A stretch of DNA of 61,990 bases, counting the filler. It is 14 parts of 14 records of this genome, joined end to end, with 100 filler letters (N's around TTAATTAATTAA, not from the genome) between each part and the next. Parts side by side here need not be neighbours in the genome. Positions count along the whole stretch, not along the records: positions 17,785 to 23,367 come from SRR15195285_7940; 13 more parts are not named here. The stretch is one strand, 5' to 3'. Below are positions 17,449-49,324 of this stretch, one piece after another. Under the pieces are notes generated by a model. The model did not search any database. It worked only from the letters and a program-made list of their open reading frames with translations, and had not been told where the DNA came from. Both the position numbers and the translations under genes were made by a program. The first letter of the stretch is position 1. Each line of letters opens with the position of its first letter.

Positions 17449-18208
17449 CCCCGCACTGCCTCTCTGCGATCAGCTCACTCTCCAGCAACGGGGGGGGTCC
17501 TCCTGAGCCCTCTCGCTCACCCTCACCCTCAGCAAGGCGGTCTGGCGGACGGGTGGGAACGCCGCGGACGACGAGCGCCGAAAATGCGAAAATGCGCACC
17601 GGCCGCCGATACATACAGTCGTGGGGTGGGTCAGGGCGAATTATTAGATCCCGACGCTTGAAATCGGGGCTCCGATGGCGTCATNNNNNNNNNNNNNNNN
17701 NNNNNNNNNNNNNNNNNNNNNNNNNNNNTTAATTAATTAANNNNNNNNNNNNNNNNNNNNNNNNNNNNNNNNNNNNNNNNNNNNGCGGGGTGCAATCTGG
17801 GCACTGCTGCCTCATCAAATCCTCCGAGGTTCCCACCTCAAGCCCGGCGCCGGCAGGCGCGCGCGAGCGAGCCCGCGGGCCCGGCGCCGCGGCGCGCGTG
17901 CGTGGCCCGAGCTTAAACGTAATATGGTGGCCACTGGCACGTGGCAGGCAGCGCGGGAAGGGAGGCTCGCTCGCCCCCTCGCCTGCGTGTCGCTGGGCTA
18001 ACGCAGTGCACGATTTGCCCCTTGTATTGGAGTAGAATCTCCCTGCGAACAGCGCGTGCGTTGCAGCGATGCAGCTGGCTACCTGAGCTGCCACCCGCAG
18101 CAAGCAAGCAGCGGTGGCGGCGTTCGACGCGAAGGCCCGCCAGCAGCGCACGAGGGGGGAGGGTGCGTCGGACGTACAGCGGCGCCAGAGCTTGCTCGAG
18201 GCGCTGCA

Positions 18209-21200
18209 ATGATCCAGCGCAAACAGCTCGCCGCGCCTCGGGATGGCTCGTTCCAATCCGTCGATCCTCCTCATCTCGAAGATCAGCACAGTATGTCGGA
18301 GCCCAGTCCGGTGGTGCTCCGCTCGCCGGATCTCCATGCGAAAGGAGGAGCAGCACCAGCCGATGATCGGTGCTCAGGATGCCGCATGGCTGTGCTGGTA
18401 GCTTTCGGCATAGTACTCGGCTGTGAGCTGACGCTGCGCTTCGCAGTAGCAGCCTCATGCGGCGTTCCAGCAAGTGCCGCACCGTGGGGGCTGCCAAAAC
18501 ACCTGGAAACGGCACGGGTTGCGATTGGAGGTGCTCCGGTTGCGCCGGCACGCCCTACTATCGTGCTGCTTGGCGACTCCATAACCGCCAAGGCTTTTGA
18601 TGCTGAGGGTGGGCAAAGTTGGGCGGGCGGGATGCAGAGCTGGTACGGTGCCAAGGCGGACGTGATATCGCGCGGCCTGCCAGGATACAACACGCGGTGG
18701 GTGGCGGCTCGCATGACACAGCTATTTCCTACAAGTGTCCTTCCTCCAGCTTTGGTGGTCGTGTGCTTTGGTGCAAATGACGCGGCAGTGGAAACGCTGT
18801 CACCGACGCAACATGTTCCCATTCCTGAGTTCAAGAAGAACCTACTGTCCATCATTGAACACATCCGAAGCCTCTCGGAGAACACCCTGGTGCTCGTGCT
18901 CACTCCCCCACCAGTCGACGAAGGGGCACTCGGCCAGACGCTTCGTGGTGGTGCCCGGCGCTGCGGGCTGACGTCCGGATTAGTGGCTGAAAACGACGCG
19001 GCAGAGCACGCTCTGGCCTGTGCACGATTCAATGCAAATCCAACGGGCCTGCCTGACCGACTTCTGACGCAGACGAAGATCTACGCGACCGCTTCCTTAG
19101 CGGTAGCGAGCGAAGCAGGCGTAGCGGCACTCGATATTTGGAATGCCCTTGAACCAGAGACGATGCTGTCAGATGGCTTCCATCTTAATAGCGACGGACA
19201 TCGAGCCCTGCTCGAGGCAATACAAGTGAAGATACGCAGATCCTACCCGTCAATGATACCATCTGACATGCCACAAGACCCTCTTGCACCACAGTGGGAC
19301 ACTCTAGTCGGTGTGGTGGCTGATGGCCCATCCCCCCTTTCCCCGCTGGCACCCGGCAACGAGGGTAACAGGTTTGAGGCCTCGTTGAGCACTCTTGGAG
19401 AAGAAACGATGACAGAGATTGGGTGTACAGAGCAAGCGAAGCTAGTTGCTGACGCTCTAGCAGTGGTTCAAGTCTCTGAAAAAGATTGTCCAGACGCTCC
19501 GTTACATACACCGGAAACCACTGGCCAAGGAACAATCGTTGAACTCGAGTCACGTGGGGAATCTGAGGAAGGCAACGAGCATGCGGTGAACTTAGGGGTA
19601 GCGCTGGTACTCATACTCCTGCTTGCGGCTCTCATTCTCGGTCATTCGTTGGAGATCCGGCATATTGAAGCATTGCACGAGGCGGGAGGGGCTCTACTGA
19701 TAGGAATTGCGGGCGGTGCAGTACTACGGCTGACGGGCGGTGAAGGGTCGGGCCCAGTGGCTGTGACGCATGCGACGGTCCTTGGCGTTGCACGATTTGA
19801 TGAGCGATTCTTCTTTTTTGTCTTACTACCTCCGATTATTCTCGAGGCGGGCTACAATATGCAGCGAAGAAAGTTTTTTCAAAACATCGGGGCAATCTGT
19901 ATGTTCGCGTTCGTGGGCACCCTCATATCAACAGCAATTATCGCAGCGATTCTTTGGACGTCTGGGGTAGCAGCCACACCAGACGGCGAGGGTTTCACGC
20001 CGCTGGAAGCACTGATCTTTGGCTCCCTCATATCTGCCACCGATCCAGTTACCGTGCTGGCAATCTTTGGATCGCAAGGAGCTGACCGTGATCTGTACTC
20101 TCTTGTGTTTGGAGAGTCAGTACTCAACGACGCCGTCGCGATCGTGCTGTATCAGACCTTTGACAGCTTTAATCCTCGTCACTGCGCCCACGAATCGCCA
20201 GCTAACTGTGAGATGTCGATATCTACCGTCGTGAAAGCGGGTGGATCGGCGTTCAAGATTCTGTTTGGAAGTATTTTTGTCGGCACAGCTATGGCCTTCG
20301 CGTCTGCTTATTTGTTGAAACATCGTGGGCTTTATAGGCGGGCAGATCTTTTCTTCCAGACCGAGATCCTGGTGGTTGTGCTCTTCCCTTATATTGCATG
20401 GATGCTGGCTGAGGCAGCACACCTGTCTGGGATTGTTTCGATTCTGTTCTGTGGTATCGTGATGGCACACTATACGACGCACAACCTCCATCCGGATTCT
20501 CTCGCCTTTTCGCGAAAGTTTTTCAAGGTTTTGGCATTCGGGTGCGAGACCTTTGTCTTTGTCTATATGGGATTGGCGCTGTTTTCTTTTCGGCAAGACT
20601 TTGCACACTGGCCTACGTACATAGTTGGCGTTCTTGCAATGCTTGGTGCGCGAGCAGCGAACGTATATCCTATTGCGTGCTGCGTCAACCGTTATCGCCG
20701 CACAGGAAGACACATTCCGGTTGGCTTTCAGCACATTTGCTGGTTCTCTGGTCTTCGCGGTGCGATAGCGTTTGCTTTGGCGCTCAAGGCGCGAATGGAC
20801 TATGATACGCGTGACGCGAACGGAACACCGGGTGCCGGGCGGGCCATCTTCACAATGACGCTCGCAACCGTGCTCTTCACTGGTACGTCGCGTGTGGTGC
20901 TCCCCTGCACGCACACTGGTTTAATAGCCGCGGCAACACTGCATCACTATTATCCCCTTTATGTTCCATTCCCAGAGCGCATGAAATAGGAAGCATGCAC
21001 ACAACAAACACACCTGCGCGCGACTGACATGATCGTGATTGTTCGCTCTCTGGTCGGTGATATTGGCCCAGTGCTTGGGATGGGTGGATCGATAGGTAAG
21101 ACTGATCTCTCCTTTTCTTTGAGTCGATTCGCATTGCGCTGATATACATGTGGCACAACAGACATTTCATTGTCACGCCGGCTTGCATTGCTCGCCAGCA

Positions 21201-21637
21201 GTAGATGACAGTTCTGAATGTAGACACCTACGTATAATTTGCATTTGTGTCTGTGCACACGGTATGTTTGGTTGTACGCAGGCAAGCTGCTGCAGCATTT
21301 CGGTGCGTTTGAGACCAAGGAGACGCTAGCGAATGATGAGATGCTGCAGACAGATCGTAGGGGCTCTAGGATGCTCGCAATCGACCGACGCTATATCAAG
21401 GTACGCCGTATGTTCAGGTTACCGACACTCTCCGTCATCGTGCGCAGCATATGGTCTCACGAACGTACGTGGTGCGTGCAAATGTGATCGTGGGCTGCAA
21501 TGGCACTATCTCGACAGCCTATCTTCACATGGACAGATGTGAGTTTCGGCCACCTCTCCCAGCAGCCTCCACAAAAGAGCCATAGTGAGGCAGCTATCCG
21601 ACTCAAGGAATCGCCACGGGCAGCTGATGGGCCGTGA
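18209..21637 (+). CDS. Fusion of an SGNH/GDSL esterase (IAH1-like) and a CPA1 Na+/H+ exchanger (NHE/NHX)
   Basis: One uninterrupted exon carries [25 protein letters not shown] and DGFHLN, then [40 protein letters not shown] and [14 protein letters not shown]. The 3' exons 21072-21095, 21282-21400 and 21518-21637 complete the last TM helix and tail. Start could be 18209 or 18293. Confidence 0.9.
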
Positions 21638-21754
21638 TTAACTGCCGCTGTAATGACCATAATCTGAATAACTTTCTCAATCGATGAATGAATGCTATTT
21701 TTCAACAGTGGCAAACACTAGCGCAGCTGCAGCTGCACCAATAGGAAGTCGCAA

Positions 21755-23186
21755 TCACAGGGATGCACTAGTGCTGCGTTCGACAATCGGAACGTCGCCA
21801 GCGAGGAGCCCGGCCTCCTTGAAACCGCGCCACAAGTCTATGGGAATTTTTGTATCCAGGAGCGCAACATTCTGCTCTGCTTCAGCCGGTGATGCCACAC
21901 CGCAGACCACACTGGACACTGCCGGGTGCATCAGTGGAAAATGCAGTGCCGCCGCGGGAAGGGACACACTGTTCTTAGCGCAGATTGACTCCAGAGCAGC
22001 GACCCGCTCAATGATATCATCCGACGCCTTTGTGTAGTTGAACTTTGCTCGGTTCTCAGCAGCTTTCGAGCCGCCGACCAGGATACCACCTGCCGTTTGT
22101 TGCAGAAAGTCAAAACGAACGGAAAAATAATTTGGCGGCACGCGCGAAGATACGTACCGTTGAAAGGGGCGAAGATCACCGCTCCGATATTGTTATCCGT
22201 TGCAAGCTGCAGCGTACCATCATCATGGACCTGCTGCCCAAGAAGCTGCAGCGATACGCCAGTAAAATCAGCTAGCTAGCTGCATCATAGAGCACGATTT
22301 TGCGGTCTGTAGGTCGAGGGCGTACCGTATAACTAGTCGGGAGACAGACATAGTCCAGTGAACAGTGCTTTAGAATCGCAGATATCGACTCGAAAGTTCC
22401 GCCACCTGTGCCGATTGCGCTGACAGCACCACTGTCACGCAGCTCTTCCATCGCACGGAAGCCGCCACCGGTGGTCAGCTGCTCCCACTCGTCCGTGCCG
22501 GGGAGCGGCTGGCTGTGCATGAGAAGTCCATCTACATACGGCTGGCCCATGCGATGAAGGCTCTCGTTGTGTTGCTTCATAAAACCCTCGTACGTATTAT
22601 CCATCACGCTGTTGAACCCATTCAAGCCGCCGGCCCACCCGTGGCTGTCGCTGTGGTTCATCGTGTTGGGCGTCACAGCGCGATCTGGAACCAGCTGCCG
22701 GCAAACCTTCGTGGATACCTGCTCCGAGGAACAATCACCTTGAATGATCAACGCTCACAGCAGTACATATTTCCCATGCAAACTTGATTCACGCTTAAGA
22801 GCACTACTCGTCGGAGCGGGTACAAAGACGTCAGCACGTGGCACGCGTACGGCACCGATATCGTCGTTTGCTTTGCGGAGCGCGCGGCCGATGCGCATCT
22901 CAGCGAGACCCGCGCCGTACGAAGGAGCGACGTCGAAGTACCGCACCCCCAGCTCAAGGGCTCGTTCAAAGGTGGTTGCGGCCTGTCCGCAGACAATCAC
23001 ACGGTAAAACGCAGTGCGCGTGCAACCCATGCCGTTGGTTTGCATTTAAAAGCGCAGAGAAAGTAGGCGTGCCTCTTCGTCTGTGATTCGATCGTAGATT
23101 TCGCCGATGGGGGCGCATCCAAAGCCGAGAGGAGGCAGATAGATCGACGATTTGCCCAGCTTGCGACGCTCCGTCAGCAAGACCAT
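21755..23186 (-). CDS. Aldo-keto reductase (D-threo-aldose/L-fucose/pyridoxal dehydrogenase-like)
   Basis: MVLLTERRKLGKS..LGFGCAPIG, YFDVAPSYGAGLAE, VSTKVCR, YVDGLLMH, APFNGGIL, SLPAAALHFPLMHPAV. Introns 22983-23072 (GC-AG), 22719-22823, 22246-22325 and 22090-22157. Confidence 0.9.
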
Positions 23187-23467
23187 ATCTACAGTGTACA
23201 AGTTGCGCTACTAGTACGTAGACCGCGCGTAGGGTGACCGCCGTAGTACGTACAGACCGCAGGGTGCGCGCCACAGACGCCCGGCGCCAGCGCGCCACAG
23301 CAGGGTGCCGCAGCAACGATCCGGCCTACGCATGCTAGAATGCATGTACCCAGGTTGAAATTCGAAANNNNNNNNNNNNNNNNNNNNNNNNNNNNNNNNN
23401 NNNNNNNNNNNTTAATTAATTAANNNNNNNNNNNNNNNNNNNNNNNNNNNNNNNNNNNNNNNNNNNN

Positions 23468-28310: not shown

Positions 28311-29657
28311 TTAGGACTGTCTAAGCGCATCGGCTGAACTCTTTGCCCGAACTGTGGCATCTGGCGCGTTGAAAGAATCTAGCACATTGCGCGTAGCTTC
28401 AAATGTGCCGTACCCAATCGAGATGGCTGGTAAGCTCTTCATCAGGCTTGGTACCTGCCCCCGGTACAGACCACGTATGCCTTCATGCTGCCAGATCTGC
28501 AGAAGCGCATCAACTGCGCCGTTGTATCGATATTGGCCTAGAGCGGAACCTCGACCAAGGTCTCCGCTCACCATGTTCTGCGTGATAAGGCGTGTGCGCA
28601 CGACGGTCAGAGGATAGCCAATCAGCCCTCCTGCAAGAGCAGCTGAAGCCCCGATAAGCAGCGACACCGACACTGGCAACTGCACAGGCTTCGCGCTAGC
28701 TGTCTCGGGAACTTCGTGTGGCTGCAGCAGACTATGCCGCCGCCGTCGATTCTCCTGCTCCCATGCGATGTACTGCTCCTTGAGCGTGTTGAACACAGCG
28801 AGGTCCACGCCAGCCACAGGCATAATGCTCGCCAGCGCAGGCCCAAGCCCCCGATACAGCCCCCGCATGCCGTCTCCTGCGATAGTTTTCCCAAGACACT
28901 GCCCGACACTGGTGTAGACACCGCACTCGGCAACAGCCATTCGCGTCTTGGCAACGTCTAGTGGATAAACAACCGCTTGAGCGACGCCACCGGAGAGCGA
29001 ACCACATATGAACTTCTCGACTGGCATCATAGCGGGCTGCGAGTCATCGCCATGAATACGAAGCACGGAGTACTTCAGCTGCTCGTAGACACCGAACCGA
29101 ATGGCAGACTCTGGAGCAACCTTTAGGACGTTGGCCAGATTACCACGCCAGAACGCGCGAATACCAGCTTCTGACATCACCTCCTTGCAGCACTGGCGCA
29201 TGTTGTAGCTCTGGTCACTGCGAGTTTGCAAACGCATCTTGACTAAATTCAGCGGCGCGGTGACTGACCGGCTGACCACACCCGCACAGCCGCCAGCCAC
29301 AAACACCGCCAGTCCAGAGGAGGCACGCTGGCCGAAATACTGGGAGAAGGCGCTGGTGGCCTGCGAGCGATGCTCTGCGCGGAGAGTTGCAGAGCGCTGC
29401 TTGTCGTACTTCTTGCTGATCTTATCCAGCGCAGTCCGATTCATAGCGACGTACTCAGGGTCCTGGCGCAGTGTATCTGGCTCGACAGCCAATCGATCGA
29501 GTACAACCTGCATCTGCTCGGCGTACATGCGCTGGAACTCATCCTGGCTCACGCCGCCTGCGATGCTCTTCTTCATCGCCTTGTAGTCGACGTAGTGTTC
29601 CGCCGGCACTGGAGAGCGGCTGGCATGATCGCTCAGCGTACTGCCAAACTTCACCAT
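28311..29657 (-). CDS. Mitochondrial carrier (SLC25, ATP-Mg/Pi carrier SCaMC/APC-like) with an N-terminal compact SPX domain
   Basis: N-terminus MVKFG..YVDYKAMKK..MNRTALDKISKKYDK. Three carrier repeats PLNLVKMRLQ, PLDVAKTRMA and PLTVVRTRLI, plus FWRGNLANVLKVAPESAIRF and IMPVAGVDLAVFNTLK. Single exon. Confidence 0.9.
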   Translation of the reverse strand: MVKFGSTLSDHASRSPVPAEHYVDYKAMKKSIAGGVSQDEFQRMYAEQMQVVLDRLAVEPDTLRQDPEYVAMNRTALDKISKKYDKQRSATLRAEHRSQATSAFSQYFGQRASSGLAVFVAGGCAGVVSRSVTAPLNLVKMRLQTRSDQSYNMRQCCKEVMSEAGIRAFWRGNLANVLKVAPESAIRFGVYEQLKYSVLRIHGDDSQPAMMPVEKFICGSLSGGVAQAVVYPLDVAKTRMAVAECGVYTSVGQCLGKTIAGDGMRGLYRGLGPALASIMPVAGVDLAVFNTLKEQYIAWEQENRRRRHSLLQPHEVPETASAKPVQLPVSVSLLIGASAALAGGLIGYPLTVVRTRLITQNMVSGDLGRGSALGQYRYNGAVDALLQIWQHEGIRGLYRGQVPSLMKSLPAISIGYGTFEATRNVLDSFNAPDATVRAKSSADALRQS

Positions 29658-30154
29658 CGCGAAATGTGTGTGCACAGCTCCTCGACGACCTCCTGAGGGG
29701 CGATCAGCTCATCCCCTCACGACCTGCCGATCCTCCCACGGCGTTGCATTGTCGCCCTTCTGTCCGTTCCCTCGCGGGCCAATGCCACCACAGCACGTCC
29801 GCTTACCGGGCGACCCCACGCGCAGTGCGCCTCCATCCACGCATCCGCCCCCCGCCGGAACCCGGGACGGAGCAGAGGTCCGCCGGACCGAAAATGCGTG
29901 AATTCGACGAATTTCGAGTGCACCTAGCACGTCGCAGGCGTCGGAAGGTATTGTGATAATCGCCAAAGTCCTTACAGAGGGTGCGCGCACTCGAACGTCG
30001 CGGCGATCTTGATCAGTCAGGATTCAATGCAGTTGCAGATGAGATTGCGCTTGTTTCCGGGTGCAGCCCGATGCAATCGCGCGCGCATGCACCGGCGCGC
30101 GGCGCGATCACGCGCGTCATGCAGGTATCCATCCGCGGCTAGCTAGCGGCCTGC

Positions 30155-31837
30155 ATGTGGCTACAATCATCTTGTACTAGCGGAAAATACAGTATGTTGA
30201 GCGGTATGCTCGCGCTGGCACTCCTCGCCACAAATCCTGCTGGCGGGAATGCCGACAGCCCGGGATCAGTCGCAACGATGCGGGCAGAGGCGGCGCTTGA
30301 CGCCCTCCTGTCAAATTTTTGGTCGGCCCAGCAGCAGTATCTGCTGCGCTGCGTTGCGAACGCCAGCGATGTAGACACTGGCGGTGATTCCAAGTGCAGC
30401 GAGCTCGGACATACCTCTCCGCTCCCGCCGCTGCCACCGCTTCAGTGCGACCACAAGTCTGACTGCTGCGTGGGTCTGCCTGAGAAGGAGAGGGAGCAGT
30501 GTGCGACGCGGGAGGGCTGTGCTGCGCGTCACTGTTGCTGGGACGACAGCCATGGACCGAAGAACTTCTGCTCACCACCACCCAAGGTGGAACGAAAGCT
30601 AACGGGCTATTGGAACTACCAAGAAGCCCTACACGCTGTTGCCCTCGGCGCTGCCTTCGATTCGACGAAATACGGAACGTGGGTGCGTCGGCTAGTGGAC
30701 GCGCAGTTCAAGCAAGGGACAGGGTGGAGCGTGGACTATTATGATGATATGAATTGGGCGGTTCTCGCCCTCCTGGCCGCGCACGACGTTGGTCTGGACG
30801 ACGCACGAGACTACCTTGATCTCGCGCGCACGGTATTTGGGTACGTGGGCGCCGCGTGGGACGACAGCATCTGCGGTGGCGGTGTTTGGTGGGACAAGCG
30901 CCACACTCAGAAGGCGACAGCGTCGAATGCTGGCGCCGCGCTCTCCGCAGCGCTGCTCTTCAACGCCACAGGCAACGTCACCTACCTCGCGTGGGGACGG
31001 CGTGTCTACCATTTCTGGAATGCGACGATGACTGATCCGCAGACAGGTGCCGTCACAGATCACTACAACACGGATAGCACCCCCCCTTCGCCTCCACCGG
31101 TACATCACAATTGTTCACACCTGGAAGATTGTTGTGGTACTCTCCCACGGGGGTCGCCAGCCTACACAGAGTGCACGACGCCGAACGGATGCGAGTCCAG
31201 AGGCTGCTGCTGGGACGAGAATTCTCCCCCGCACAACTGGTGTAGTGGCAAGCCCAACTCCTCTGCACCAAGTCCGCGTCTCCGTGGCAGCGAGTCGTGC
31301 ACACTCAATCATGCGAGCTGGACGTACAACGAAGGATTAATGCTTGGCGCGGCGACGACGCTGGCAGCGGCAATAGCCAAAAGCTACGGTGGCAGATCTA
31401 GTACGTCAGATGTGTTGCAGCTTCAATACGCTGCTGATGCCGCTAGATTTGCGACCCACTTAGTCTCTTCACAAACGGAACTTAAGAACGGACGAGTGTT
31501 GGTCGACAGCTGCGACTGGGGTGAAACACCGTGCCACGACTGCTCGCAGTTTAAAGGCATCGCTTATCGCGAACTGGCCCGTTGGCTGCGGAGCCCTTTG
31601 GGTTCAGATGGACTCGGTGACGATCGCACCGAGCACCTGGAACTGAAGCAATCAGTTCGCAGACTCCTCAATGACAGCGCAGCATTGGTATGGGAGGGAA
31701 GACAAGAAGGGACGGCGTGGGATGGCCCGCTGTTCGCCACTGGGTGGGCGCTCGGTTCAAGGAAGAGCTGCCCTCCCAGCCTGCCATCCCAGGCCTCTGC
31801 AACCCACGCGCTCCTGGGACATGCGGCACTGCTGTAG
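30155..31837 (+). CDS. Secreted glycoside hydrolase family 76 (alpha-1,6-mannanase-like) with two Cys-rich trefoil-like inserts
   Basis: Signal peptide, YYDDMNWAVLALL (catalytic DD), CGGGVWW, KATASNAG, WTYNEGLMLG, QFKGIAYR. Confidence 0.85.
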   Translation: MWLQSSCTSGKYSMLSGMLALALLATNPAGGNADSPGSVATMRAEAALDALLSNFWSAQQQYLLRCVANASDVDTGGDSKCSELGHTSPLPPLPPLQCDHKSDCCVGLPEKEREQCATREGCAARHCCWDDSHGPKNFCSPPPKVERKLTGYWNYQEALHAVALGAAFDSTKYGTWVRRLVDAQFKQGTGWSVDYYDDMNWAVLALLAAHDVGLDDARDYLDLARTVFGYVGAAWDDSICGGGVWWDKRHTQKATASNAGAALSAALLFNATGNVTYLAWGRRVYHFWNATMTDPQTGAVTDHYNTDSTPPSPPPVHHNCSHLEDCCGTLPRGSPAYTECTTPNGCESRGCCWDENSPPHNWCSGKPNSSAPSPRLRGSESCTLNHASWTYNEGLMLGAATTLAAAIAKSYGGRSSTSDVLQLQYAADAARFATHLVSSQTELKNGRVLVDSCDWGETPCHDCSQFKGIAYRELARWLRSPLGSDGLGDDRTEHLELKQSVRRLLNDSAALVWEGRQEGTAWDGPLFATGWALGSRKSCPPSLPSQASATHALLGHAALL

Positions 31838-46370: not shown

Positions 46371-48582
46371 TCAATACGAAGGTTGGTAAACGCACGCAAG
46401 CAAGCTGCTTTCTCCGCGTATCCAGGACTGGGCGGGCTTCTCTACACATTGTGTTAGACCCCAGCCAGCGAGCAGGCTGAGACCTAGTGCCACCGGAATC
46501 ATGAACCAGGGAATCATTGGCAGGGCTCCGAACATCCACGCTTGCAGACAGGCAGAACAGAACGCCTCCGGCTCACCCTCCCAGTCAATTGGTGGCTCCG
46601 GAGCCTCTCCACCCTCCACTAGCGACGCCATACATTGATCGAACAGCTCTTGCTCACAAATGGTCGCAGGACCGCGTGTTTCTTCATCCGCAAAGATCGC
46701 GGCAATGCCCAGCATGACTATCATGTGACTCATGTAAAACGACATGGAAATCTCACCGAGCCAGACGAGTGGAGCCGAATTTGTGAATCGTGAAGTCGCG
46801 CTTAGACCTGAAGTTCCGCGTGTAGCAGTTTAAGAACAGTGGCACAGGCAACTGGGGCAGCATTCAGGTGGCGCAGCACGCACCATGGTCATAGGTGAGC
46901 GAAACGATGATGCCAAGCTCAAGCATTACGATGGCCGGCTCCAGCCCCAACCTCCCCGCAAACAAAATCATAAAACCGATCAAGTCGGCAGGCTCGGAGA
47001 ACCCATCATCGCTGCCGAAGATCAGGCTTATCAGCACAGAACCCATCACAACGAGCAAGATGGAGCCATAATAGAGACCCGTCGCAAGGTCTGCGCGGCG
47101 GGCCCACACCTCCGGCGGGTCCCGTCCTTTCTGTCCGATTATCGTCTGTAGCGCGCAGCAAGCGCAGCTCACGCAGCGCGTGAAACAGCGACAGCAGCTG
47201 CAAGGACCTGCCACAACGATCGAATCAAGCGCTGAAGAGGAATGTGTGTGCTGCTGCTGATGTGATATCAAAAAGGCATCTGCCGGCTGCGCTTGTGCCT
47301 GTGCCTCTACCGCCTCGCCTATCTTGATAGCCGCCGCAAGTGTAGCGTCGTGTGGGTTGCCCTTTAGGTCGCGGTACATCATCTTGATAGCCTTGTGGAC
47401 GGCGCCACCAGAACGCTGCACGGCATCGCTGAGACACTCGCGAGCGTCGTCGTCATCAATGCGGTCTTTCTCCATCTCTTCGTGCACTTCGAGTCGGTTC
47501 AACGCAGCAAGGCAGCCCATAAAGAACACCATCACGCGTGTCATTGGCCAGGCTCGACCGATCCAGTAGCCGTTGTCTTCCTGCGTGTCGAAGAAAAATC
47601 GCGGCGCATCTGTGAAGTTGCGCAGCTCTAGCTGCAGTACTGGCACGGCGCTGGCATAGGCGAATGAAGCGCCGTAGGTGAGAGCCTGTAGCCAGTAAAA
47701 GTTCCTGCTCCGTCGGTCGGGTTCGCGACCACTATGTTAGATGGGCAAGGGGCGAGCACCCTCGCAAGGGACCGTCTGTAGACTGGCCAGCGAGAGCGTA
47801 GGACGGAGTGCAATTGCGTACACGATCCACTTCGAGCGCTGCTGTGTCGACATGCGCTGCATGCGCGGCAGCGCGCACGGAAACACCCAATAGAAAAAGC
47901 TCATGGTGGTGATGGTCCAGCAGACTGGATTGGGTGGTGGGCCAACGTCAATGAACGGGTAGAGCCAAGAGTTTATCCCGAAGAGCGAGAGGAATGCGGA
48001 GAGGATCACTGTGTGCGGACCAGCCATGCCGTCGATTCCAGCCGGCGCCATGCCCACGAGCACCACAGGAAAGAACAGCAAGTTGGTCACATAGTACACT
48101 GGTGCCAGGCGGGCGAAGCGATTCCGCCAGAACCTCTTGGCGTCGAACTTCTTCGCAGCATCGCTTGGCAGCTCGTCGCCGCAGCACCCTCCTTCGTCGG
48201 AATAGTTGCTCTGTCCGTAGCCCAGCGTCATTACAAACCCACTCAGGAGGTAAAAAAATGGCATCGCCGCACCGCCGATGAGGTCGAGCCGTAGCGTGCT
48301 GAAATTGAACATATGGCCGAGCGCGACGTGAAGTGCCGCCAGGCCTCGCACGCCAGTGAGAGCAGAGGTGTCGACCCGCCGTTTGGCTTCCAGCGACGGC
48401 GTGTCAACCACTGGCTGCCGCGATGGCAGCAACGATTGACCCTCTTCGACGGCCTCGCCAGCGGCATCGGACCCGCCATCCACGGCAGTGCGGAAGGCCA
48501 GCTGCCCGCCGATGGCCACGTCGGAGGGTGTTCCCTGCAGCGCACTCGCCCTCAGCGGATTTGGCTTCGGCTTCGGCCCCAT
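46371..48582 (-). CDS. Acyltransferase-3 (OafA-like) membrane protein, multi-exon
   Basis: LTGVRGLAALHVALGH, FFYLLSGFVM, FWRNRFARLAPVY, WTITTMSFFYWVFP, RVMVFFMG, WLGEISMSFYMSH. Confidence 0.88.
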
Positions 48583-49324
48583 GTTTCCTCGAACAAGGTC
48601 CTCTTCCACCTCAACGGCTGCCAATCCAGAGTGATGATGCTCGAGGCACGATCGACTACCTGGCAGCCTACTTAGCAGCACGCGCAGCAGTAGCGCGAGT
48701 GCGTGCCCTGGGACACGCACGCGCGCGGCGCCGCGGCGGCTACGCGCCCGCGCGCGCGGCCGCGCGCGCACGCGACGATGATCGAGATCGGTCGCGGAAT
48801 GAGAAATGAGCAGTCGCGACCCCATCGGCATGCCTGATTCACATTCTTGAATTCAGTGATTCTTGGGTCTCCGCAGTAATTTCATGTGTATTGCATTAAC
48901 TCGGATTGTAATAGGAACTCTTTTCGGTTGATTCCGACCAAAATATGTGGTTCTCAGCGGGTGGAGCGAATTCGAAGGAAAAGATGAACTCTGATGCATA
49001 TCAACNNNNNNNNNNNNNNNNNNNNNNNNNNNNNNNNNNNNNNNNNNNNTTAATTAATTAANNNNNNNNNNNNNNNNNNNNNNNNNNNNNNNNNNNNNNN
49101 NNNNNTAGGACCTAGGAGGCGTCAGGCGTCAGGGCTGAGGGCCGAGAGCCGAGGGCTGAGGGCGTACTATAGTATACTGTACGGACGGAGCGACGGACGG
49201 GATTCCCGGACTGCAGGAGCCGTTCGGCGCCGGCGCCGAGCTGCCTGGGGGGACCAGAGGGCGGCAGCGCCCACGGCTGACTGCTGGGCCGTGAGCGAGG
49301 CAGCTTGGGGACTGGGGGGGGGGG

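Follow-up and report, generated by a model that had tools for sequence, protein, structure and literature searches.

The window analyzed here is a stretch of 61,990 nucleotides, and one of its genes, at 18209-21637 on the contig SRR15195285_7940, encodes an IAH1-like SGNH/GDSL hydrolase domain and a complete Na+(K+)/H+ exchanger of the CPA1 family in the same polypeptide. We have hardly any doubt that this is a true single-gene fusion. The esterase half is IAH1-type by sequence and by fold, and the exchanger half, which extends from residue 459 to about residue 905, is a CPA1 protein with 13 transmembrane (TM) helices, of the endosomal NHE6/9-NHX5/6 kind.

An uninterrupted open reading frame (ORF) of 926 codons occupies positions 18209-20989 of the plus strand (product P0001, the query in the searches described below), and its start codon is the first in-frame ATG downstream of TAA 17999. 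In the 926-aa translation, Pfam recognizes Lipase_GDSL_2 (PF13472) at residues 121-333 (E 3.3e-20, 73.8 bits with a cut-off of 32.9), Lipase_GDSL at residues 118-338 (E 2.6e-14), and Na_H_Exchanger (PF00999) at residues 472-891 (E 8e-57, 193 bits with a cut-off of 26.2); these matches are far beyond chance. The final 35 codons of the ORF are read-through into intron 1, the donor of which follows position 20882. Joining exon 1 to three small exons gives a spliced product of 978 aa, with canonical GT/AG borders and a frame that closes and ends at 21637, and the resulting C-terminus matches the contiguous C-termini of two database relatives, P0006 and P0174 (see below). The VLGMGGSI motif of exon 2 is likewise contiguous in P0006 and in P0174-P0177. 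A sequence-only reading of the window had assigned the anchor, the esterase, the linker and the exchanger to a single exon and had ended the gene at 21637. The end is correct, and exon 1 does carry everything from the N-terminal tail to the first half of TM13, with anchor, SGNH domain and linker included, but the remainder of this last helix and the C-terminal tail are found on exons 2-4.

The same reading held that the fusion does not come from the choice of splice sites, and this is borne out, as both domains lie in one ORF and recur in the same order, in one frame, in six database clusters with 99, 86, 75, 75, 57 and ~40% identity to the query. A search with residues 60-470, limited to proteins of 509-1621 aa (7999 candidates scored), produced five proteins at E <= 0.001. 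Three of them, P0002 (99%, 925 aa), P0003 (86%, 900 aa) and P0006 (57%, 963 aa), have both domains, and P0006 carries the product of exons 1-4 contiguously; P0004 and P0005 (75% each) are incomplete, yet continuous through the linker into TM1-2 of the exchanger. When the exchanger was used as the query (residues 460-900), PF13472 and PF00999 were found together in four of the best 120 of 5600 matches, namely, P0002, P0003, P0006 and P0185. The last of these has both domains, is 48% identical to the query in the exchanger, and is the most distant fusion found. We also performed an exhaustive profile-free search of 1.84 billion representatives, which gave 12,925 matches; among the best 150, the esterase half was matched only by P0003, P0004 and the fragment P0009.

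The two families are normally encoded separately, as had been stated from the sequence. Forty-eight of the best 150 matches, comprising exchangers with long N-terminal parts and two fragments (P0009 and P0101), were scanned with Pfam; leaving the fragments aside, none of the 46 exchangers contained a GDSL domain. A search limited to proteins of 138-440 aa gave 20 relatives, all with esterase-family Pfam domains only; 19 of these are stand-alone-sized, and the exception, P0009, is a fragment that comes from the N-terminal part of a fusion lineage.

The junction itself is preserved among the fusions. The frame of the linker is kept despite insertions and deletions, with identity to the query of 98, 74, 59, 60 and 39% in P0002, P0003, P0004, P0005 and P0006, respectively, and no fusion sequence has a stop codon in the linker. 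An exchanger-only start within the linker was considered and rejected: P0101, which starts there and runs into the exchanger, is only a fragment, its contig having been cut. JGI, Logan and ENA, three sources with independent assemblies, all show this in-frame order, over six levels of divergence in total. Metagenome contigs searched with an SGNH alignment gave five loci among 70 pattern matches, and none of the five reached the exchanger. L001 and L002 are short 5' fragments of P0006-like and P0009-like lineages, respectively, with the same beginning as the N-terminal tail of the query, and L003-L005 are 28-30% identical. In L001 (362-1543, plus strand), a P0006-type N-terminal tail, anchor and SGNH domain are followed, after '...LLEAVQ', by an in-frame fragment of an MtN3/SWEET protein (PF03083, E 1.1e-5, profile positions 33-81 of 87) and then by a stop; there is no splice signal where the two are joined, and L001 is most likely a chimeric assembly. 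A protein-atlas search with P0001 gave no usable match.

RNA evidence consists of assembled Logan contigs (contigs, not reads) of four RNA-library runs, mapped to the gene. The interval 19200-19600, singled out by the sequence-only reading as the place to look for RNA coverage, lies within a 530-nt contig of run X1 that spans 19118-19645 with 4 mismatches and bridges the junction between esterase and exchanger, extending from block V of the esterase (D322/H325 at 19172-19183) across the entire linker and into TM1. A contig of the oligo-dT run X5 covers 19497-19846 with 0 mismatches. In the small-share runs X2 and X3, the matches are mostly just the conserved ND-motif stretch 20108-20150, from other organisms. 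Another X1 contig, 20475-21009, has a 3-nt deletion at 20886 that is also seen in P0002, so that a P0002-like strain is indicated in the X1 sample.

The SGNH domain has the full set of catalytic blocks that had been read from the sequence: block I, G122-D123-S124, with the nucleophilic Ser; block II, with its Gly, within SRGLPGYNT (residues 154-162); block III, G188-A-N190-D191; and block V, D322-G-F-H325, with the Asp and His of the triad. Blocks II and III, which make up the oxyanion hole, align with those of IAH1 homologues. All four blocks are intact in P0002, P0003, P0004, P0005 and P0006, and so are the three that are covered by the P0009 fragment. The IAH1-like identity also holds: yeast Iah1 (PDB structure 3mil) is the best match of the domain among PDB sequences (residues 118-226, E 1.9e-8), and it is the first of 197 Foldseek matches in PDB with E <= 0.001 (E 9.4e-14, TMt 0.79) for the AlphaFold2 model of residues 85-470, in which the mean predicted confidence (pLDDT) is 78.7 and the SGNH core exceeds 90. 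Among stand-alone proteins, those nearest to it are homologues of IAH1 (bearing that name in Anolis, Achlya and Bolinopsis), with 28-38% identity at 85-95% coverage of the domain. In the orthologues of the window lineage, the esterase domain is 66-99% identical, about equal to the conservation of the exchanger. All fusions, including P0185, have a specific insert of ~25-30 residues with invariant C252 and C271 and an NP.GL motif, and the stand-alone IAH1 homologues are without this Cys-containing insert. The domain is a fused, membrane-anchored derivative of the IAH1 branch and not a typical member of it.

The exchanger is complete, as had been claimed. The PF00999 match covers profile positions 6-361 of 375, and the best PDB sequences for the C-terminal half of the protein are NHE9 and NHE6 (~1e-69), with NHE1 at ~1e-40. 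The AlphaFold2 model of residues 400-891 (mean pLDDT 88.4) was compared by VIA-align to horse NHE9 (8pxb), with Z 40.6 and root-mean-square deviation 2.3 over 409 residues at 38% identity; model residues 58-492 align to residues 17-472 of the 8pxb chain, so that the full 13-TM fold is present, starting from TM1. The TD motif of TM5 and the electroneutral-type ND motif of TM6 are in place, and E636, S637, R815 and R850 are also present. In a paper on NHE9 (PMC7737618), D215, N243 and D244 are given as ion-site and 'ND' residues, T214-D215 corresponds to the TD motif, and the N243A-D244A double mutant is described as having lost exchange activity in a liposome assay. The cytosolic tail past the last TM helix is only ~75 residues long. 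Among the named proteins in the listed matches of the exchanger search, most are from plants and green algae, and several are named NHX5/6.

Both connecting elements noticed from the sequence, i.e., the hydrophobic anchor ahead of the esterase and the acidic linker after it, are present (Table 1). The N-terminal tail preceding the anchor is 70% identical to the query in P0003 and 39% identical in P0006. Within the anchor, codon 73 is GAG (E73); Gly is found at this site in 5/5 close orthologues, and an RNA-library contig has A>G at 18426. E73 (18426) is a rare allele or an assembly error. The linker is modeled by AlphaFold2 mostly with low confidence (pLDDT < 60), except for two helices at ~388-424, and the 20 residues directly before TM1 have a net charge of -5.

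The esterase probably faces the lumen or the exterior of the cell, as the sequence-only reading had suggested. Such placement is predicted because TM1 is fold-equivalent to TM1 of NHE9, which starts outside, and because a hydrophobic anchor precedes the esterase; the acidic character of the stretch adjoining TM1 also fits it, as does the signal-peptide-like start of the exchanger-only relative P0177. For NHE9, the N-terminus is described as extracellular, with 23 residues ahead of TM1, and long extracellular N-terminal tails are said to require a signal sequence for translocation (PMC7737618). In the simplest topology, 14 TM helices would leave both termini in the cytosol and place the esterase, together with the linker, on the non-cytosolic side. 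The invariant C252 and C271 would suit an oxidizing compartment. The likeness of the exchanger to NHE6/9 and NHX5/6, which are established endomembrane exchangers, favors an endomembrane compartment for the fusion protein, such as the Golgi/TGN, an endosome or a vacuole, over the cell surface.

The fusions appear to have a single origin, since the trees of both domains give one fusion clade and the two-Cys insert is common to its members. In the exchanger tree, built from 54 rows (the query, three fusions and 50 others picked from match lists), the four fusions are monophyletic (SH-aLRT 89); their sister group (support 80) is P0174-P0177, a clade of exchangers without the esterase (support 98), and both group apart from the named plant and green-algal NHX5/6 sequences. 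In the esterase tree (25 rows), the fusions form one clade, with support of 98 for the core and 81 once P0185 is added. P0177, the nearest of the exchanger-only relatives whose complete N-terminus was inspected, has, by eye, a signal-peptide-like start and a short acidic helix-like segment, followed by TM1. Such an arrangement is compatible with an ancestral exchanger whose signal was cleaved and whose lumenal tail was short, and the esterase may have been inserted into that tail.

There are other cases of added domains among the exchangers that were collected. In P0178 and P0181, members of a sister group of exchangers (~48% identical), the loop that leads into the last TM helix holds ~190 extra residues that look, by eye, Cys-rich and EGF-like; PF00999 is the sole Pfam match in P0178. 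This loop should face the lumen or the exterior and would represent another extracytosolic elaboration in the exchanger lineage. In P0121 (702 aa), which may be a merged gene model, the exchanger domain is preceded at the N-terminus by a ubiquitin-conjugating enzyme domain (PF00179, E 4.9e-28).

The explanation that we favor, as somewhat more probable than all others together, is a real 978-aa protein with 14 TM helices, in which a non-cytosolic esterase and an exchanger are both taken to be active. From the N-terminus, it would consist of the cytosolic tail (1-59), the signal-anchor (60-83), the SGNH esterase (115-345), the linker (346-458), the exchanger (459 to ~905) and a short cytosolic tail. 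The Ser-His-Asp esterase would cleave short acyl groups, of which acetyl is the probable one, off a substrate in the lumen or at the surface, in the same compartment whose pH is set by its own exchanger. The exchanger would dissipate the gradient, whereby the His-dependent catalyst would stay where protons leak out, and the proton from each hydrolysis could be exchanged away. Fusion would guarantee that the esterase and the pH-setter reside in one compartment at 1:1 stoichiometry, and, because NHEs are dimeric, two esterase domains would sit side by side. That the two activities are functionally coupled through pH, as the sequence-only reading had proposed for acid released by deacylation, rather than merely delivered together, is possible, though we lean against it.

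A still bolder proposal, which we regard as unlikely, is that the SGNH module and the exchanger make one working unit, a self-buffering 'pH-stat' enzyme-transporter. Binding or hydrolysis of a lumenal substrate would then gate or tune the proton leak through the attached exchanger or, alternatively, the exchanger would keep local pH at the optimum of the esterase and clear its acid; a catalytically dead copy, such as the one in P0185, would be a pure sensor version. If true, this would be the first enzyme or pseudoenzyme ectodomain that regulates a CPA1 exchanger from the lumenal side.

Several observations weigh against the reading of the gene as an expressed fusion of two active halves. There are no splice joints among the RNA contigs of the four runs (none covers exons 2-3, but a stretch without coverage is not evidence in itself); moreover, the X1 contig at 20475-21009 extends 127 nt beyond the exon 1 donor, which points to pre-mRNA or DNA in the library, so that the bridging contig is no proof of a mature mRNA. 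Chimeric contigs do occur in such data, as illustrated by L001 with its P0006-type esterase and SWEET fragment. In P0185, GDS, GAND and DGFH are replaced by GDG, GAAD and DGVS, with the loss of the Ser, Asn and His; thus, in at least one lineage the domain has been kept without catalysis, which weakens the models in which hydrolysis is the purpose of the fusion. Finally, stand-alone IAH1 is cytosolic, and therefore a lumenal substrate cannot be transferred from what is known of IAH1. P0185 is one cluster of 8 sequences, with a gene model that includes unspliced stretches and with changes at three separate catalytic positions, and its branch in the esterase tree is very long (2.34, compared to a median of 0.32). 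It hints that the esterase domain persists there as a pseudoenzyme, perhaps in a binding or regulatory role.

The best-surviving alternative to two active halves working together, to which we give perhaps one chance in several, is co-delivery only, with the exchanger serving as a membrane anchor and sorting vehicle for an esterase whose activity is independent of its own. The long (~113 residues), acidic and mostly low-confidence linker suits a flexible tether, and the nearest exchanger-only relatives, P0174-P0177, appear complete without an esterase. However, co-delivery gives no reason why the same exchanger partner has been kept from 99% to ~40% identity, nor why a catalytically dead copy is retained in P0185. 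If the halves are independent, the gene would provide a clean example of gene fusion for co-delivery, of modest interest.

It is improbable, in our judgment, that the SGNH domain acts chiefly as an ectodomain without catalysis, capping the lumenal face of the exchanger to bind a ligand or to regulate, with any catalytic activity a dispensable leftover. P0185 would agree with such a role, as it retains a PF13472 match (E 4.4e-6, under the gathering score) and the two invariant Cys alongside its altered catalytic blocks. Against this, the blocks are intact in all six of the other lineages that cover them (for P0009, its three), the domain identity of 66-99%, about the same as in the exchanger, is what is expected of an active enzyme, and the long branch of P0185, a single cluster, makes it look like a derived exception.

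Even less credit can be given to the possibility that the SGNH domain is an O-acyltransferase like those of CASD1, OafA and OatA, which are described as sharing this layout, with an extracytosolic SGNH domain on a multi-pass protein (PMC9833829, PMC7448272, PMC13043746). Here, by Pfam, the membrane part has no Acyl_transf_3, TmAT or MBOAT signature, only PF00999, and it has the NHE fold, so that it is a CPA1 exchanger and not an AT3/TmAT or MBOAT conduit; in addition, the closest match by sequence and by fold is the hydrolase Iah1, and there is no evident route for an acyl donor. Last, an artefact, in which two adjacent genes, a misassembly or a chimeric contig would have been read as one ORF, could draw on the short 5.6-kb contig of a fragmented assembly, on the evidently chimeric metagenome contig L001 and on the unspliced RNA-library contig, but its probability is close to nil, given that the same in-frame order recurs across three sources and six divergence levels, the linker is free of stops, a separate RNA run yields a contig across the junction, and the two domain trees agree.

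Table 1. Coordinates of the fusion gene and its parts in the window
Feature	Position	Strand	Basis or remark
Artificial contig join (N44 + TTAATTAATTAA + N44)	17685..17784	.	424 bp 5' of the start codon; 5' edge of the gene's contig
Exon 1	18209..20882	+	Codons 1-891 plus one base; donor G|gtacgt
N-terminal tail, residues 1-59, predicted cytosolic	18209..18385	+	Alignment; MIQRKQL start conserved among orthologues
Hydrophobic signal-anchor, residues 60-83	18386..18457	+	Kyte-Doolittle 19-mer peak 2.04; present in all orthologues
IAH1-type SGNH/GDSL hydrolase domain, residues 115-345	18551..19243	+	Pfam, PDB sequence match, AlphaFold2 fold
Catalytic codons	S124 18578-18580; N190 18776-18778; D322 19172-19174; H325 19181-19183	+	Motif positions
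Acidic linker, residues 346-458 (~113 residues)	19244..19582	+	Net charge -17 over residues 345-465
CPA1 Na+(K+)/H+ exchanger membrane domain, residues 459-891 (exon 1)	19583..20882	+	Pfam, PDB match, AlphaFold2
Ion-site codons	TD T611-D612 20039-20044; ND N640-D641 20126-20131	+	Motif positions; NHE9 alignment
Exon 2, 24 nt	21072..21095	+	Acceptor cccag|, donor |gtaaga; VLGMGGSI, completes the last TM helix
Exon 3, 119 nt, cytosolic C-terminal tail	21282..21400	+	Acceptor cgcag|, donor |gtacgc; matches the P0006 and P0174 tails
Exon 4, 120 nt	21518..21637	+	Conserved KP.FTW tail motif; stop TGA 21635-21637; RNA-library contig 21554-21748

The window is a chain of 14 short contigs (~3-10 kb each), separated by 13 spacers of the form N44-TTAATTAATTAA-N44 that lie within 3450-58374. 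Gene order across the joins is therefore meaningless, and nothing outside 17785-23367, the 5.6-kb contig of the fusion gene, can be taken as its genomic context; on this contig, the fusion gene lies beside a convergent gene for an aldo/keto reductase. Pfam scans of 26 of the 107 long ORFs in the window found ordinary eukaryotic genes only. The AT3 family is often partnered with SGNH domains, and an ORF with an Acyl_transf_3 (AT3) match (E 7.9e-13) is found at 47740-48852 on the minus strand of another contig, unlinked to the fusion gene. Elsewhere, Pfam indicates a mitochondrial-carrier protein with a weak N-terminal match to the SPX domain (28314-29708, minus strand) and a Glyco_hydro_76 protein with a weak Trefoil match (30143-31834, plus strand).

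As far as our searches reach, the protein seems to represent a new domain architecture, assembled from known families and confined to one small clade of marine eukaryotes; the list of fusions rests on the best 120 of 5600 and the best 150 of 12,925 matches, and more distant fusions are possible. A full-text search, with supplements and subscription journals outside its scope, found no paper that joins these two domains. The cellular roles of IAH1-type esterases are poorly understood, and here such an esterase would have been moved to the secretory or endosomal lumen, or to the surface, of abundant marine protists. The extracytosolic N-terminus of NHEs is usually short and dispensable, and, to our knowledge, all known regulation of eukaryotic NHEs is exerted via the cytosolic C-terminal tail. 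The fusion raises the questions of whether lumenal chemistry, such as de-acetylation, and lumenal pH control can be hard-wired together, and why one lineage retains the domain after losing its catalytic residues.

Each half of the protein has well-defined counterparts. The esterase shares with Iah1/IAH1 of animals, plants and oomycetes the GDS, RG.SGYNTRW-like, GAND, QHVP, TPPP and SDG.HL motifs, but those proteins are stand-alone, soluble and ~215-290 aa long (typically ~240 aa), whereas the domain described here is anchored, fused to a transporter, provided with a two-Cys insert of ~25-30 residues, and predicted to be non-cytosolic. The exchanger has in common with NHE9/NHE6 (SLC9A9, SLC9A6) and NHX5/NHX6 the 13-TM fold from TM1, the TD and ND motifs and the conserved Arg. 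Animal NHEs have a long cytosolic C-terminal regulatory domain, a trait of the animal proteins and not of the whole family, in contrast to the tail of ~75 residues seen here; and where NHE9 has 23 residues ahead of TM1, the fusion has a whole enzyme domain. CASD1, the bacterial OafA/OatA AT3-SGNH proteins and the MBOAT-SGNH pairs also tether an extracytosolic SGNH domain to a multi-pass membrane protein, and the likeness is one of layout only: there, the acyl group is conducted by the membrane domain for transfer by the SGNH domain, whereas the fusion has an ion exchanger as its membrane part and an SGNH domain of the IAH1 branch of hydrolases.

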